From: a virus
Direction: 5' to 3' (one strand)
Virus record (IMG/VR): IMGVR_UViG_3300022602_000058
Location: 1 to 64,000 of that record
Length of the DNA: 64,000 nucleotides
The first letter of the stretch is position 1. Each line of letters starts with the position of its first letter. The position numbers and the translations under genes were made by a program. A model generated the notes under the pieces. The model was given only the letters and a program-made list of their open reading frames with translations. It did no database searches and was not told the DNA's origin. Shown here in pieces: positions 4,335-9,165 of this stretch.

Positions 4335-5558
4335 ATGATAAGCCCATTCGCCTCACCGTTTGCGTCTCCTTTCGCTTCACCCTTTGGTACAACACCACTA
4401 CAACCGCTTGCACCGGCACAGCCTATTATTGAGCAACCACCTGAGCTTTCACTAAAGCGCGTAATGAATTATTATGCTGATTATAGCGGATGTGGGTTCT
4501 GGCGATTGATATGGCCAGAGCATATTCTTAATGCACATCAAAAGCAAGTAGTCCATGGTAGTACAATGATGTGCTTTGACCCTAATTACTTTAGAGGTGC
4601 TGAATGTGTACGTATTCAACGTCAAGCAACACCACATCAATTACAATTTGTTAGATTTCTTAAAGAGCTTAGTAAACAGCTTGGATTCAGAATTATTTAC
4701 GAGATTGACGATCTTATTTTTAGTGAAGATATTCCTGAGTATAATAAGTTTAAACCTGCTTTTGTAAATCCTGAAATTCGTAAAACAGCTCAAGAGATTA
4801 TGGAGTTGTGTGATGAAGTGACTGTAACTTGTGATTTCATGAAAGAGTATTATATGGGTAAAACAGCGAACAAGAATGTTACTGTTATACCTAATTACCC
4901 ACCAAAGTTCTGGATGGGTAATTTCTATAATGAAAAGAAGATTTCAGATAACTACGATAGGTTCCAGAAGAAGCCTCGTATTCTCTATGCTGGCTCAGGT
5001 GCACACTTTGATGTTGATAACCGTGTTGGTCAGAATGACGACTTTGCACATGTAAATCGCGTCATTCGTGCAACTAAGGACAAATATCAATGGGTATTTC
5101 TCGGTGCATACCCGCTTCCGCTGCACGATCTTATTCAGAGTAGAGAATTTGAATACCACCCTTGGGAAACTCTTTATAGATACCCTGAAAAGATTGCTAG
5201 CTTGAATGTGAATATGATGGTTGCACCTCTACAGAACAACACATTTAATAAAGCTAAGTCAGATCTTAAGTTTATTGAGGCTTGTAGTTACGGTTTACCG
5301 ATTGCTTGTCAAAATATTGTAACGTATGAAAATGCACCTTACAAGTTTGATACAGGTGAGGAAATGATTGATATTGTTGATGATGTTCTCTCTAGGAAGG
5401 GCCGATACATGAATATTTCATCTAAGATGCGTAAGCTTGCTGATGAGCGTTGGCTTGAGAATGAGGATAATATCAACAAATATGTCGAACTTCATACATT
5501 GCCATATGGACATAAAGATAGAAAGCTTTTGAATGCTATCAATGGTATTAAGGCTTGA
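4335..5558 (+). CDS. GT-B fold (GT4-like) glycosyltransferase
   Basis: GCGFWR, EIDD, VIPNY and APLQNNTFNKAKSDLKFIE..YGLP motifs typical of phage GT-B enzymes. Confidence 0.7.
   Translation: MISPFASPFASPFASPFGTTPLQPLAPAQPIIEQPPELSLKRVMNYYADYSGCGFWRLIWPEHILNAHQKQVVHGSTMMCFDPNYFRGAECVRIQRQATPHQLQFVRFLKELSKQLGFRIIYEIDDLIFSEDIPEYNKFKPAFVNPEIRKTAQEIMELCDEVTVTCDFMKEYYMGKTANKNVTVIPNYPPKFWMGNFYNEKKISDNYDRFQKKPRILYAGSGAHFDVDNRVGQNDDFAHVNRVIRATKDKYQWVFLGAYPLPLHDLIQSREFEYHPWETLYRYPEKIASLNVNMMVAPLQNNTFNKAKSDLKFIEACSYGLPIACQNIVTYENAPYKFDTGEEMIDIVDDVLSRKGRYMNISSKMRKLADERWLENEDNINKYVELHTLPYGHKDRKLLNAINGIKA
4341..4388 (+). repeat. Tetrapeptide repeat (SPFA)x3-SPFG
   Basis: agc cca ttc gcc / tca ccg ttt gcg / tct cct ttc gct / tca ccc ttt ggt. 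Confidence 0.9.
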
Positions 5559-5582
5559 TACTATTCTTAGCTAGTATATACT
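5555..5582 (+). promoter_or_regulatory. Sigma70-type early promoter for the polymerase N-fragment
   Basis: TTGATA-16nt-TATACT, 6 nt before GTG at 5589. Confidence 0.55.
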
Positions 5583-5588
5583 ATTGGT

Positions 5589-5993
5589 GTGTACAGGAAC
5601 GTTTCATACTCACCACAAGATCAAACCATTCATCTCCATACATGGGATGAGAATGGTAAGAGAGTAACCGTACAGTCAACGTACGAGCCTTATATCTATC
5701 TTGAGACAAATAATGCGCCAGACGCTCATAGTATCTTTAATACTAAGTTAAAGAAAAAGAAATTTAGGAATCAATACGATAGATCCAAATATATCAAGGA
5801 CAATAAGGTAACGCGAGTATTTGAAAACTTTAACGTATACCAACAATTTTTGATTGATGCATACTGGCAGGAGAATGAAAAACCTGAATTTACAAAGAAT
5901 CAATTAAAGGTATATTTTATTGATATCGAGACCGACTGTCATAATGTTAAGGATAGTAAAAAAATTAAAATTCGCAAAAAAACAATTTCTTGA
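5589..5993 (+). CDS. gp43: DNA polymerase family B, N-terminal fragment (N-domain plus ExoI motif)
   Basis: gp43-like N-terminus (YEPYIY) ending in LKVYFIDIET (ExoI), followed by a 19-aa basic tail and a stop. Confidence 0.85.
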   Translation: MYRNVSYSPQDQTIHLHTWDENGKRVTVQSTYEPYIYLETNNAPDAHSIFNTKLKKKKFRNQYDRSKYIKDNKVTRVFENFNVYQQFLIDAYWQENEKPEFTKNQLKVYFIDIETDCHNVKDSKKIKIRKKTIS

Positions 5994-6003
5994 TATAGAG
6001 ACG

Positions 6004-6011
6004 TATAAATA
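6004..6011 (+). promoter_or_regulatory. T4-type late promoter for the HNH endonuclease gene
   Basis: TATAAATA 5 nt upstream of ATG 6017. Confidence 0.65.
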
Positions 6012-6016
6012 ATTTA

Positions 6017-6823
6017 ATGGATTATAAGTTAATATATCAAAGATTATGTCTCCGCGGGCAAACTAGAACCAAAAATAGTAATATATATCTCGAAAAACAT
6101 CACATTCTACCAAAATGCCTTGGTGGAGACAATTCATTTGCTAACCTAACACTTCTTACAGCCCGTGAACACTATATAGCTCATTACTTGCTGTGTAAGG
6201 TATATAACGATAGCAACATATCAGTTCGAGCTAAATTATCCTCTGCTTTTAACAGAATGTGTACGCTTAATACACATAAACGCCAATTTACATCGCGTCA
6301 ATATGATGTTGCGAGAAAGTATTTTTCTAAAAATCATCATATGAAGAGTAAGGAGTGTAGGGATAAGGTTGCCCTAGCTCTTAGGAAGAAAGGTATAATT
6401 ACAAGACAGCTTAGAGAGCAGCTGCTACCGCTGTGTAAGTGCGGTTGCGGTAAAAAGGTAAAAAATAAATACCACCAATATCTTTATAATCACTGGGACA
6501 GAAGTGTAACAAAATCAGGCTTTACAGAAGAAGTACGTAAACGGCTAAGCGAAAAAGCTATAAAGCGTATATTAAGCCTCACGGATAAGGAAAAGAAAGA
6601 CAGATTACAAAAATCCTTGCATAGTGAGAAAGTGGATCATATTATGAGAGGTAGAAAGATATCTCTCTCCAAAAGAGGGAAGAAAACCAACCAACAAAAT
6701 ATAATGGGTGAAAGATTTGCGAATATGACGGAGGATGAGTTTTTATTATACTTAAACACAGTATCACCAAAGGTATGGACAAGATATACAAAATTAAGAA
6801 ATAGATGTCTGAACAAGAAGTAA
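6017..6823 (+). CDS. HNH homing endonuclease (MobE-like) inserted in the polymerase gene
   Basis: EKHHILPKCLGG..NLTLLTAREHYIAHYLL HNH motif, CKCGC motif, basic C-terminal DNA-binding region. Confidence 0.88.
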   Translation: MDYKLIYQRLCLRGQTRTKNSNIYLEKHHILPKCLGGDNSFANLTLLTAREHYIAHYLLCKVYNDSNISVRAKLSSAFNRMCTLNTHKRQFTSRQYDVARKYFSKNHHMKSKECRDKVALALRKKGIITRQLREQLLPLCKCGCGKKVKNKYHQYLYNHWDRSVTKSGFTEEVRKRLSEKAIKRILSLTDKEKKDRLQKSLHSEKVDHIMRGRKISLSKRGKKTNQQNIMGERFANMTEDEFLLYLNTVSPKVWTRYTKLRNRCLNKK

Positions 6824-9165
6824 CATTAGGGCACTTCCGTAATAATAAATTATGGGAACAAGACTACGAGGTGTGGGATGAAAAAACCGGTACATGGATA
6901 GATTATTTTTCATCATCTTATTCTACAGACACATCGTTTCCGAACCCCCAGGATCCCGATCATCCCATTAATATCATAACTATCTATGACACCATAACAA
7001 AGAAGTTTTATTCATGGGGACTTAAACCTTATAAAGCAAAATCTGTTGATGTAACATATATTGCATGTAAGACAGAGGAAGAGCTATTGCATAAGTTTGT
7101 TACTTTCTTTAGTAAAGATTATTGCGATATCCTTTCGGGATGGAACTCAGAATTTTTTGATGTACCTTATGTTATTAATCGAGTAAGAAAAGTTTTAGGT
7201 GAAGAATCAATGCAAAAACTTTCACCAGCAGGTTCATTGCGTTCAAGAACCTTTATGGGTAAGTATGGTAGAGAACAAGTTAAATGGCATATTGAGGGAT
7301 TATCTTGTGTTGATTATCTTGATATCTATAAACGTTTCTGTCAAACTCTTCGTGAGTCTTATAAATTAGATGCGATTGGCGAAGTGGAATTACAAGAGCG
7401 TAAGATTGATTACGGTGATCAGAATTTGACTGAACTTGCTGATAATGACTGGGATACTTTTGTTGATTATAATATTCAGGACGTTAATCTTTTAGTAAGA
7501 CTAGAGCAAAAACTTCAGTATATTCAATTATTACGAATGATTGCTTATGCTGGTCTTACGACGTTTGAAGGAGCACTTGGATCACTTTCTGTTATTACCG
7601 GTCTTTGCTCTATTCGTGCACGTCTTAAGGATAAGCGTATTCCCACTTTTGTAAAGGATGTACAAGAGGGTACAAAGAATGCTGGTGCGTATGTAGCAGA
7701 TCCACAGCAAGGTTTTCAAGAGCATATAGTATCGTTGGACGCTAATAGTCTATACCCCAACACGATGATTACACTTAATCTCTCACCAGAGACAAAAGTA
7801 GGTAAGATCATTGGAAAGAATGATAAAGAAATTACTATTAAACACGTAAATGGTCAAACGTTCAATCTTACACATGAAAAGTTTGCTGCGTTTGTTAAAC
7901 AGGAGGAGATAGCAATTTCACGTGCTAAAATTCTTTTTACACAAAAGGAGAAAGGTATTATACCTGATACAATTGACTATTATTACAATAAGCGTGTAGA
8001 GGTTAAGAAGCAACTTACTAAAGCAAAGAAAAAATCGCTTACTCTTACTGAAAACACAAAAGAGTATGATAATAATCAGATCGAAATTGACCGACTAAAC
8101 ATTCGTCAGCATACTATTAAGATTTTGATGAATACAGTGTATGGATATTTTGGCAATAAACATAGTCCGTTAGGTGACGATGAACTTGCCGAATCTATTA
8201 CACTTACCGGGCAAGCTGTTATTAAAGAATCAAATCGTATTTTGACTGAATATATCAAGACAAATACCGGTCTGACCGATGAAGATCTAAAAGATAATTC
8301 ACCTATTATCTATAACGATACAGATTCAAGTTATATTTCAATTAAACATCTTGTTAAAGCGAAAAAGATCCCTGTATTTGATAAGGACGGTAATGTACAT
8401 CCTGATTATTACAAAGCTGTTGCTGATATTGAAGATCATTTGAATAATGAAATTATTAAATGGGGCAAAAGCGCGTTAGGATCAAAGGATTGTCGACTTG
8501 TGTTCAAGCGTGAAGCTATTGCTGATGTCGGGCTGTTTCTAGCAAAGAAACGTTACGTCCTGCATACACTTGACGTCGAAGGCATTCCTGGTAAGAAATT
8601 TAAGTATACAGGCGTTGAAGTTGTACGTACAACCATGCCTACACCTATTAAACCTTACGTTAAAAAAATTATTGAAACAATGCTTTTGACGAAAGACTAT
8701 AACGCCACTAATAAAGTGTTTAATGAAACATACGAAATCTTTAAGAAATTACCACTTGAAGATATTGCATTTGTAATGGGTGTGAAGGGATATGAAAAGT
8801 ATGCCAATCGTAGTAATGGATTTGAGACAGTAAAGGGAATGCCCAAACACGTTAAAGCTGCATACTATCATAATATTCTTCTTGATCGATTCGGTATTGA
8901 ACGAAAATATGAAAAGATGACATCAGGTGATAAGGTAAGATTCTTTGAAGTAAAGAAACCTAATAGCTTTGGACTATCTGTTATTGGATACAAATACTAT
9001 TACCCTAAGGAGTTTCAATCTATTTTTGAAATTGATTATGAAACAATGTTTGAAAAGATTATCTATTCTGTTATTGAACGTTTTTACGAAGCTGTAAATT
9101 GGACAGTAAAAAGACCAGGTAATGATGCGCAGATTGATCTTTTTGATTTACTTGGAATGGAATAG
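6805..9165 (+). CDS. gp43: DNA polymerase family B, C-terminal fragment (ExoII/ExoIII plus polymerase domain)
   Basis: GWNSEFFDVPY (ExoII), YNIQD (ExoIII), DANSLYP, KILMNTVYG, YNDTDS, KKRY. Confidence 0.95.
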   Translation: MSEQEVTLGHFRNNKLWEQDYEVWDEKTGTWIDYFSSSYSTDTSFPNPQDPDHPINIITIYDTITKKFYSWGLKPYKAKSVDVTYIACKTEEELLHKFVTFFSKDYCDILSGWNSEFFDVPYVINRVRKVLGEESMQKLSPAGSLRSRTFMGKYGREQVKWHIEGLSCVDYLDIYKRFCQTLRESYKLDAIGEVELQERKIDYGDQNLTELADNDWDTFVDYNIQDVNLLVRLEQKLQYIQLLRMIAYAGLTTFEGALGSLSVITGLCSIRARLKDKRIPTFVKDVQEGTKNAGAYVADPQQGFQEHIVSLDANSLYPNTMITLNLSPETKVGKIIGKNDKEITIKHVNGQTFNLTHEKFAAFVKQEEIAISRAKILFTQKEKGIIPDTIDYYYNKRVEVKKQLTKAKKKSLTLTENTKEYDNNQIEIDRLNIRQHTIKILMNTVYGYFGNKHSPLGDDELAESITLTGQAVIKESNRILTEYIKTNTGLTDEDLKDNSPIIYNDTDSSYISIKHLVKAKKIPVFDKDGNVHPDYYKAVADIEDHLNNEIIKWGKSALGSKDCRLVFKREAIADVGLFLAKKRYVLHTLDVEGIPGKKFKYTGVEVVRTTMPTPIKPYVKKIIETMLLTKDYNATNKVFNETYEIFKKLPLEDIAFVMGVKGYEKYANRSNGFETVKGMPKHVKAAYYHNILLDRFGIERKYEKMTSGDKVRFFEVKKPNSFGLSVIGYKYYYPKEFQSIFEIDYETMFEKIIYSVIERFYEAVNWTVKRPGNDAQIDLFDLLGME

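Follow-up and report, generated by a model that had tools for sequence, protein, structure and literature searches.

A mobile HNH endonuclease cassette in a split phage DNA polymerase gene carries the two halves of a small polymerase module

The freshwater phage DNA analysed here, called the window throughout, comprises 64,000 nucleotides (nt), positions 1 to 64,000 of the IMG/VR record IMGVR_UViG_3300022602_000058, and the locus under study lies on its plus strand at positions 5589-9165. Two open reading frames (ORFs) of 134 and 786 amino acids (aa) around a gene for an HNH homing endonuclease are the two fragments, A and B, of one T4-type DNA polymerase (gp43). Fragment A carries a C-terminal extension (the tail) directly after its Exo I strand, and fragment B carries an N-terminal extension (the head). 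The tail and the head are collinear halves of one module of about 55 aa, which runs uninterrupted between the motifs DIET and FPxP in unsplit gp43, and positions 5934-6936 are one mobile unit that includes the codons of both. From sequence comparisons we consider it fairly probable that a mobile HNH cassette entered the polymerase gene after the Exo I codons and that the tail and the head rebuild the module after translation.

Collinear halves of one module

In Pfam searches fragment B matched DNA_pol_B (E 4e-29) and DNA_pol_B_exo1 (E 1.5e-15), and it was the only match to a family B DNA polymerase (PolB) in the 90-kb record. Fragment A ends with ...YFIDIET, DCHNVKDSKKIKIRKKTIS and a stop codon, and its residues 1-115 showed 84-92% protein identity with module-less kin. 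By script count, the tail contained 6 Lys, 1 Arg and 2 Asp among its 19 residues (net charge +5), and the head contained 8 Asp/Glu, 3 Lys/Arg and 3 Trp (net charge -5). These numbers agreed with a sequence-only reading made before the present analysis, which had counted 7 basic and 2 acidic residues in the tail and 8 acidic residues, 3 basic residues and 3 Trp in a 38-aa head. The same reading had held that removal of both extensions leaves a normal DIET|YSTDTSFPNP sequence; this also proved correct, since among the 120 listed relatives of fragment B, 112 had no module and continued from DIET into a YSPDxFP-type sequence, seven were B fragments with the head, and one, the metagenomic polymerase P0110, was unsplit and carried the module.

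When fragment A was compared with the unsplit polymerase of Xanthomonas phage X1 by BLASTP, it aligned with residues 20-127, with KKIKIRK of the tail opposite DEVLVRK, and residue 1 of fragment B aligned with residue 131 of the same protein. Since one alignment ended at residue 127 and the other began at residue 131, the tail and the head abut in the unsplit enzyme. The module was continuous in the alignment of the X1, Moby and P0110 polymerases, and P0110 reads DIET-DTLYYKGDHKIKIRKKATEEQIVDFKTFRNNKMSADYEVWDEEKQLWCNYNQSC-YSQHTSFPNP within a single chain. Residues 1-200 of fragment B, used as a tblastn query, matched 2591 phage records, only 18 of which also covered the head, namely Xanthomonas phages X1 and BUDD and 16 Stenotrophomonas (Menderavirus) records, the polymerase being unsplit in all. 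A profile of the module, searched against 1.84 billion representative proteins, gave 22 matches at E<=0.001; eight were long polymerases in which the module occupies roughly residues 110-185, and 14 were proteins whose N-terminus lies no more than a few residues from the head. The identical break point recurred among polymerases less than 50% identical to one another. The recurrent starts at the head, together with the unsplit carriers, indicated that the extensions are halves of one module of about 55 aa, which accounts for an unusual insertion seen in gp43 of cultured Stenotrophomonas and Xanthomonas phages.

The two halves also recurred as a pair in diverged split polymerases, with a tail core [IVM]-[KL]-[IV]-R-[KR]-x and a head motif YEVWDE...W...SCY. 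The sequence-only reading had treated the tail and the head as a matched pair, and their collinearity and joint recurrence bear this out; the recurrence also shows that the pair did not arise by chance in the window. In every split locus listed, the tail core lay 0-7 residues from the stop codon and the 8-14 residues preceding it were variable; the conservation of the core beside a variable linker argues that the tail is under selection, and would fit a role of the tail in tolerating the split. Other searches were less productive: a near-identical DNA search of 5589-9165 against GenBank phages gave no match, tblastn with fragment A found only Synechococcus phage S-SM1 (29% identity), tblastn with short module queries (85 and 62 aa) found nothing at E<=1, the modules of cultured phages surfacing only with longer queries, and a word-based search with the P0110 module returned only P0110 itself.

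The residue alternation in KIKIRK, EVTLGHF, YEVWD and TWIDY is strand-like, which suggests that the module is beta-rich. The module, searched against the ESM Atlas, matched only PolB exonuclease clusters, with scores all below 0.9. A zinc site formed by Cys and His residues was considered and rejected, because only one His and one Cys were semi-conserved. The net charges of the N-terminal half in 11 unsplit modules were +4, +6, +1, +1, +3, +6, -1, +8, +3, -2, and -3, and those of the C-terminal half in the same modules were -4, +1, -6, -7, -4, -3, -8, -9, -3, -4, and -6; the tail and head of two split pairs measured +5/-5 and +6/-6. Because the contrast was largely present in unsplit modules, the opposite charges are mostly inherent to the module and are probably no adaptation to the split. 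The sequence-only reading had cited charge complementarity as an established feature of split-intein association, and on this point the charges did not support it.

Mobility of the cassette and its family

The closest of the listed relatives of fragment B, P0011 (862 aa), lacked the module. Around P0110 the module was present in only one of the 69 loci with a readable Exo I region, and around fragment A in only three of 50 readable loci. Comparison of the P0110 locus (L006) with its kin L007 showed the module standing precisely in place of YSVDS, with DIET before it and FPNP after it, in flanks that are 87-91% identical. Module-less loci aligned with the window up to 5932/5933 and resumed at 6935-6937. 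Over 5934-6936, three split contigs (L082-L084) were 98-100% identical to the window in DNA sequence, compared with 74-84% in the left flank and, in the right flank, 88% over 6937-7000 and 75-83% thereafter. This difference in identity between the cassette and its flanks (74-88% in all), together with the lack of the module in the nearest kin, indicated that the tails belong to the mobile cassette; in support of the sequence-only reading, the pair travels with an endonuclease gene that interrupts an essential one. Beyond the 3' border, the brief rise in identity (Table 1) is likely a co-conversion tract.

Table 1. Features of the split gp43 locus, in positions of the window
Feature	Position	Strand	Description
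gp43 fragment A	5589-5993	+	134 aa, GTG start; N-terminal domain and Exo I strand ...YFIDIET, then tail and stop
Exo I motif codons D-I-E-T	5922-5933	+	left border of the cassette immediately 3'
Whole mobile cassette	5934-6936	+	tail codons, stop, Exo I-like copy, TATAAATA box, HNH gene, head codons, YSTDTS codons
Tail, N-terminal half of module (DCHNVKDSKKIKIRKKTIS)	5934-5990	+	19 aa; core strand KIKIRKK; stop codon 5991-5993
Second Exo I-coding copy (TTGATATAGAGACGTA)	5990-6005	+	F-L-D-I-E-T-Y-K-stop in another frame; overlaps the tail stop
TATAAATA box	6004-6011	+	5 nt upstream of the HNH start codon
HNH homing endonuclease ORF	6017-6823	+	268 aa, free-standing
gp43 fragment B	6805-9165	+	786 aa; rest of the exonuclease domain and polymerase domain
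Head, C-terminal half of module	6805-6918	+	38 aa, N-terminus of fragment B; then YSTDTSFPNP
YSTDTS codons	6919-6936	+	3' end of the cassette; in place of YSPDA of empty alleles; borders equal in L006 versus L007
Short stretch of raised identity	6937-7000	+	88% to L082-L084 versus 72-77% to module-less loci; 78% in the next bin

A maximum-likelihood tree was built by quick search from 330 columns downstream of the module and 60 rows, with P0130 left out. On this tree each split row had a module-less partner: the window's fragment B paired with P0011 (97% identity, support 93), P0004 with P0017/L085 (support 99), and P0010 with L088 (support 85). P0110 paired with L007 (support 99), and at least six changes between module and no module were required. 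Both this scatter and the identity contrast are signs of horizontal spread. The cassette was partly covered by contigs of four freshwater or lake metagenome runs (four studies, 95% likeness), and none of the runs listed was from RNA. The contig that spanned 5889-6989 is 1115 nt long and comes from a lake metagenome; the flanks 5589-5888 and 6990-7400 had no cover from metagenome runs at 95% likeness. By record name, metagenomes 3300010885 and 3300009154 (L082-L091) each hold cassette-bearing and empty polymerase alleles. The presence of both alleles in one metagenome is a situation in which homing can go on.

The HNH protein matched PHROG 655, annotated as 'homing endonuclease' (E 3.9e-37), and Pfam HNH_4, HNH_5 and HNH only below their cut-offs; the pattern HH-I-x-P...N...H was common to the proteins of the window and of L005. 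Relatives of the endonuclease with 30-99% identity occupied the same gp43 site. Full-length relatives were found in 16 IMG/VR loci, three near-identical to the window and 13 at 30-53% identity, and of these 13 an RK-rich tail of fragment A lay upstream in 12 and a fragment B starting with the head lay downstream in 12, the exceptions being L140, which is cut at the HNH gene, and L141, in which no head-bearing ORF was flagged by the pattern. Partial matches in L161, L190, L194 and L204 (of L149-L212) all contained HHIxP, and none was accompanied by the gp43 tail or the module head. A census of IMG/VR loci with the motif [EDN]YEVWDE gave 27 loci, near-duplicates included: 16 were split with an intervening ORF of 243-298 aa, five were split without an endonuclease, five were unsplit and one was cut off. 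With near-duplicates merged, these made about 12 types split with an endonuclease, three split without and three unsplit. Thirteen of the 16 intervening ORFs had the HHIxP motif by pattern, and the remaining three scored as PHROG 655. These results showed that the intervening genes all come from one dedicated HNH lineage, and that the cassette is a widespread family.

The endonuclease-less splits lay at the module turn, in L217 (2485-2503), L221, L222, L224 and L232. In L217 the spacer consists of TAA, 13 nt and ATG, and in the other endonuclease-less loci it is about 90-185 nt. The frame of fragment B in L217 is open across the end of fragment A, so a small indel would fuse both cistrons. The loci thus document each stage of a homing cycle: empty genes, genes split with the HNH gene, genes split without it and fused genes.

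A second Exo I-coding copy and the TATAAATA box lie between the tail and the HNH gene. The Exo I pattern had two matches in the window compared with 0.12 expected, and the copy matched the window's own Exo I 15-mer at 12 of 15 positions (shuffle p about 0.001). Comparable copies were found in eight of 13 cassettes at p<=0.04, in a search that took the wrong copy in L147, where the tail ends in-frame with DLDIEV. The TATAAATA box, which we take to match the T4 late-promoter consensus, recurred between tail and HNH gene in 11 of 13 cassettes, and in the window it lay within a weak hairpin (-13.2 kcal/mol, z -1.68; 11 of 200 shuffles folded equally well). An Exo I copy also stood beside the box in L139 (=L005; 3920-3975), L141, L144, L145 and L146. 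The Exo I copies follow the host's own Thr or Val codon; in L145 the box is flanked by two inverted copies, and the first codons of the HNH gene are paired with the copy in L136, L137 and L142. The Exo I copy could be an operator that mimics the homing site, part of a hairpin that sequesters the start codon, or the fossil of an earlier insertion.

At its 3' end the HNH ORF overlaps fragment B, whose start codon falls in the last 19 nt of that ORF (6805-6823), and an overlap of about 17-35 nt was seen in most other cassettes too. No clear Shine-Dalgarno sequence was seen upstream of the fragment B start in the window, and RNA folding of 6770-6840 around this start gave nothing beyond shuffled sequences (z -0.31).

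Proposed mechanism and alternative explanations

The cassette delivers 19 codons and a stop codon, which become the C-terminal tail of fragment A, and a start codon with 38 codons, which become the head of fragment B, and the endonuclease gene sits in the turn after the first strand of the module (KIKIRKK). In the mechanism that we favor, the two fragments would be translated separately, the tail strand would then pair with the first strand of the head (EVTLGHF) to rebuild the module, and this pairing would add to the native contacts that seat the Exo I strand of fragment A in the exonuclease fold of fragment B. With the module rebuilt after translation, invasion would cost the phage little.

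A number of observations weigh against this mechanism or limit it. The 90-kb host record is a 41%-complete fragment, and the deep module-bearers were retrieved by the module profile, so that the distribution and the evolutionary direction are biased. The pairing of the tail and head strands was deduced only from the way residues alternate and from the unbroken module of unsplit homologues. A PDB profile search matched the YEV[WY]D-x4-W stretch to Kelch blades, a weak likeness in which single stretches had independent E-values (i-E) of 2.4-120 and the summed E of 1.3e-10 came from six repeats; Pfam Kelch_1, Kelch_2 and Kelch_6 each matched one of 15 module sequences, all below cut-off. Since only one Kelch-like unit is present, the module is not a propeller, and the likeness is a hint of a four-strand beta meander, nothing more. 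The charge contrast was not universal, the N-terminal half being acidic in X1 and Moby and -1 in P0139, and the C-terminal half +1 in P0125. Fragment A of a PolB enzyme also has a large native interface with fragment B already. In Aeh1 NrdA, moreover, the corresponding tails were dispensable for fragment-fragment binding, and were required for dimerisation and activity, according to Crona et al. (2010, PMC3045599). By analogy, a simple clasp may not be the right role here.

The same result for Aeh1 also favors the explanation that gp43 acquired the module as a lineage-specific insert of the ordinary kind, which serves its own function, such as contact with another replisome protein, and that the HNH gene landed in a permissive turn, so that the tails have no role in holding fragments A and B together and take part in homing only as flanks. 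The module is indeed fixed and unsplit in the 18 records of cultured phages and in eight metagenomic clusters, and its charge pattern exists without a split. However, in two densely sampled clades the module was nearly absent from close kin and was present only with the HNH gene or, once, alone; split loci outnumbered unsplit ones by 21 to 5 in the motif census, and the borders of the unsplit module in L006 are the borders of the cassette. The polymerase works without the module, as judged from the 112 of 120 relatives and the 68 of 69 loci around P0110 that lack it. We consider this explanation unlikely. A different origin, compatible with the mechanism proposed above, is that the module was born as the tails of the cassette, and that the unsplit carriers (P0110, X1, Moby and others) are healed genes in which the HNH gene was lost and the cistrons were fused. 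Every intermediate state exists (the empty site, the split with and without the HNH gene, and the fused gene), P0110 falls within a group of module-less kin (support 99) and has borders of the cassette type, and the open frame in L217 places fusion within reach of a small indel. Against this, none of the fused loci showed a recognisable trace of an endonuclease, the X1 and Moby modules are strongly diverged and fixed in a whole genus, which an old resident insert fits equally well, and a tree of the 55-aa module would be too short to decide. Healing as the general origin of the unsplit module is therefore doubtful in our judgment, though somewhat less remote a thought than an insert of independent function.

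The sequence-only reading had proposed that the tail and the head derive from an atypically split intein that has lost its catalytic blocks. Oppositely charged strands are a feature of split inteins (Dassa et al. 2009, PMC2677866), the same speculation was raised for the NrdA tails by Crona et al. (PMC3045599), and a real intein occurs elsewhere in these polymerases (L006:6195-6719). Nevertheless, Pfam searches of 15 module sequences at E<=10 gave no Hint or intein family, and none of the 27 PDB profile matches at E<=10 was an intein, with the limit that HMMER filters may hide very weak Hint matches. The first residue of the insert, which in inteins is Cys or Ser and rarely Ala, is Asp in the window and D, A, E, N, Q, R, Y, H, G or S across the homologues; TxxH (block B) and the C-terminal His-Asn, which in inteins precedes Cys, Ser or Thr, are absent from the tail and the head, and the module ends in ...SSS or ...SC with Tyr as the +1 residue. 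At 54-57 aa in all, the module does not reach half the size of a Hint domain and could not form a complete one. The module is also continuous within unsplit polymerases, which carry the segment as an ordinary insert without similarity to Hint, the very observation that the sequence-only reading had named as speaking against its proposal. An intein origin is thus very improbable.

Equally improbable is repair at the level of RNA or translation, by intron splicing or ribosomal bypass, or a dead polymerase gene. Group I introns with endonuclease genes are known in phage polymerase genes (review). In an Rfam search of 5400-7400, however, no family reached threshold, and the four weak matches at E<=10 were unrelated and included no intron. 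Fragment A has a stop codon and fragment B a start codon of its own, and the two are read in different frames; this two-cistron layout is kept in loci whose HNH proteins are only 30-53% identical and in the locus with a 13-nt spacer. The fragment A protein, moreover, is 84-92% identical to close kin (L082-L095) while the flanking DNA is about 74-88% identical, and no other PolB was found in the record, which is 41% complete.

Many relatives, namely P0007 and P0010 (435 aa), P0110 (560 aa; L006:4001-5683), P0126, P0139, P0143, P0137 and P0144, are split again close to the fingertip of the polymerase domain, downstream of ...KRVE[VI]KK.... The tails at this second site are rich in Lys and Glu and look helical, and fragment B of the window is unsplit there. 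The ORF at L006:6195-6719 (175 aa) matches Pfam Intein_splicing with 38.3 bits (cut-off 35.8) and lies between the 560-aa polymerase fragment and a C-terminal fragment (6900-7862), so that a genuine intein fragment takes part in the second split of that phage. The gp43 split of Aeromonas phages 25 and 44RR is said to lie further downstream in the polymerase, and it may correspond to this second site (P0010 and P0110), not to the Exo I site.

Taken further, and only tentatively, the arrangement of tail, HNH gene and head might be a third type of self-neutralising mobile element beside introns and inteins. Such an element would carry its endonuclease gene within a small autonomous beta module whose halves come together again once translated, invade the proofreading active-site region of an essential polymerase without splicing, pass through a full homing cycle, leave the module behind as a permanent insert in Stenotrophomonas and Xanthomonas phages, and use the Exo I copy as a self-sensing operator; we regard this combination as possible, with the balance of probability against it.

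Relation to known systems

Full-text literature searches and term look-ups in PMC2988022, PMC2993671, PMC2677866, PMC8351571 and PMC7544198 turned up neither a module that follows Exo I nor the present cassette, with Petrov et al. 2010 (J Mol Biol 395:457), Fig. S5 of Crona et al. and the supplementary tables of Dassa et al. outside the search. What is new is the site, the origin of the tails as halves of a fused module, the identity contrast that marks the tails as mobile, and the size of the family. The underlying principle had been published before, and current views are not overturned. The statement of the sequence-only reading that it knew of no description of such a module has to be corrected, since Crona et al. 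2010 (PMC3045599) describe basic and acidic tails. For annotation, the results are a warning that ORFs of 134 and 786 aa around an HNH gene are one polymerase, and the module could serve as a natural split-protein tag.

In Aeh1, the essential gene nrdA is split at its active-site region by a free-standing HNH gene (nrdA-a/mobE/nrdA-b; Friedrich 2007; PMC3045599), as gp43 is here. The basic and acidic tails of NrdA-a and NrdA-b came with mobE, are essential for activity and were the subject of speculation on intein remnants (Crona et al. 2010, PMC3045599). In both systems, tails of opposite charge arrived with the endonuclease, which for Aeh1 is the authors' proposal, and are absent from the homologues, unsplit ones in Aeh1 and empty-site ones here. 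Unlike Aeh1, the gene and site here are gp43 after Exo I, the tails are halves of a module that is also fused in unsplit enzymes, and a near-identical cassette is found across diverged genes within a widespread family, whereas in Aeh1 the transposition of mobE seemed to be a single event. What the tails do was tested by experiment in Aeh1, and here it is proposed from sequence.

A T4-type PolB encoded as two cistrons is also known from Aeromonas phages 25 and 44RR, in which gp43 is split into 43A and 43B with a homing endonuclease gene between them in one case and only an untranslated spacer in another, and the fragments co-purify and are active (Petrov et al. 2006, 2010, as summarised in reviews). 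Unlike the HNH split of the window, the Aeromonas gp43 split is reported with a GIY-YIG/seg gene. The fractured genes of Dassa et al. 2009 (PMC2677866) have the same order of N-terminal part, endonuclease gene and C-terminal part in phage-like metagenomic DNA, and they share with the present locus the complementary strand charges and a hairpin upstream of the endonuclease gene. In those loci, however, true intein halves splice, whereas no intein feature was found here and the protein must stay as two chains. The T4 topoisomerase, split into gp39 and gp60 by mobA, is likewise an essential enzyme with tail-like extensions of opposite charge (via PMC3045599), but the gene is a different one, and those tails are not known to be a module in unsplit homologues.

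The target-like copy at a late-promoter-like box upstream of the endonuclease gene resembles the autorepression of I-TevI at an operator that is like its homing site (review). Unlike that of I-TevI, the role of the Exo I copy is putative, and the copy could be the fossil of an earlier insertion or a hairpin arm. Crona et al. 2010 (PMC3045599) predicted other fractured genes with such tails, and asked about the origin and generality of the tails. The split gp43 genes are a second and much broader system after Aeh1 for the origin and fate of such tails, and one that is testable since every stage is present in public data.

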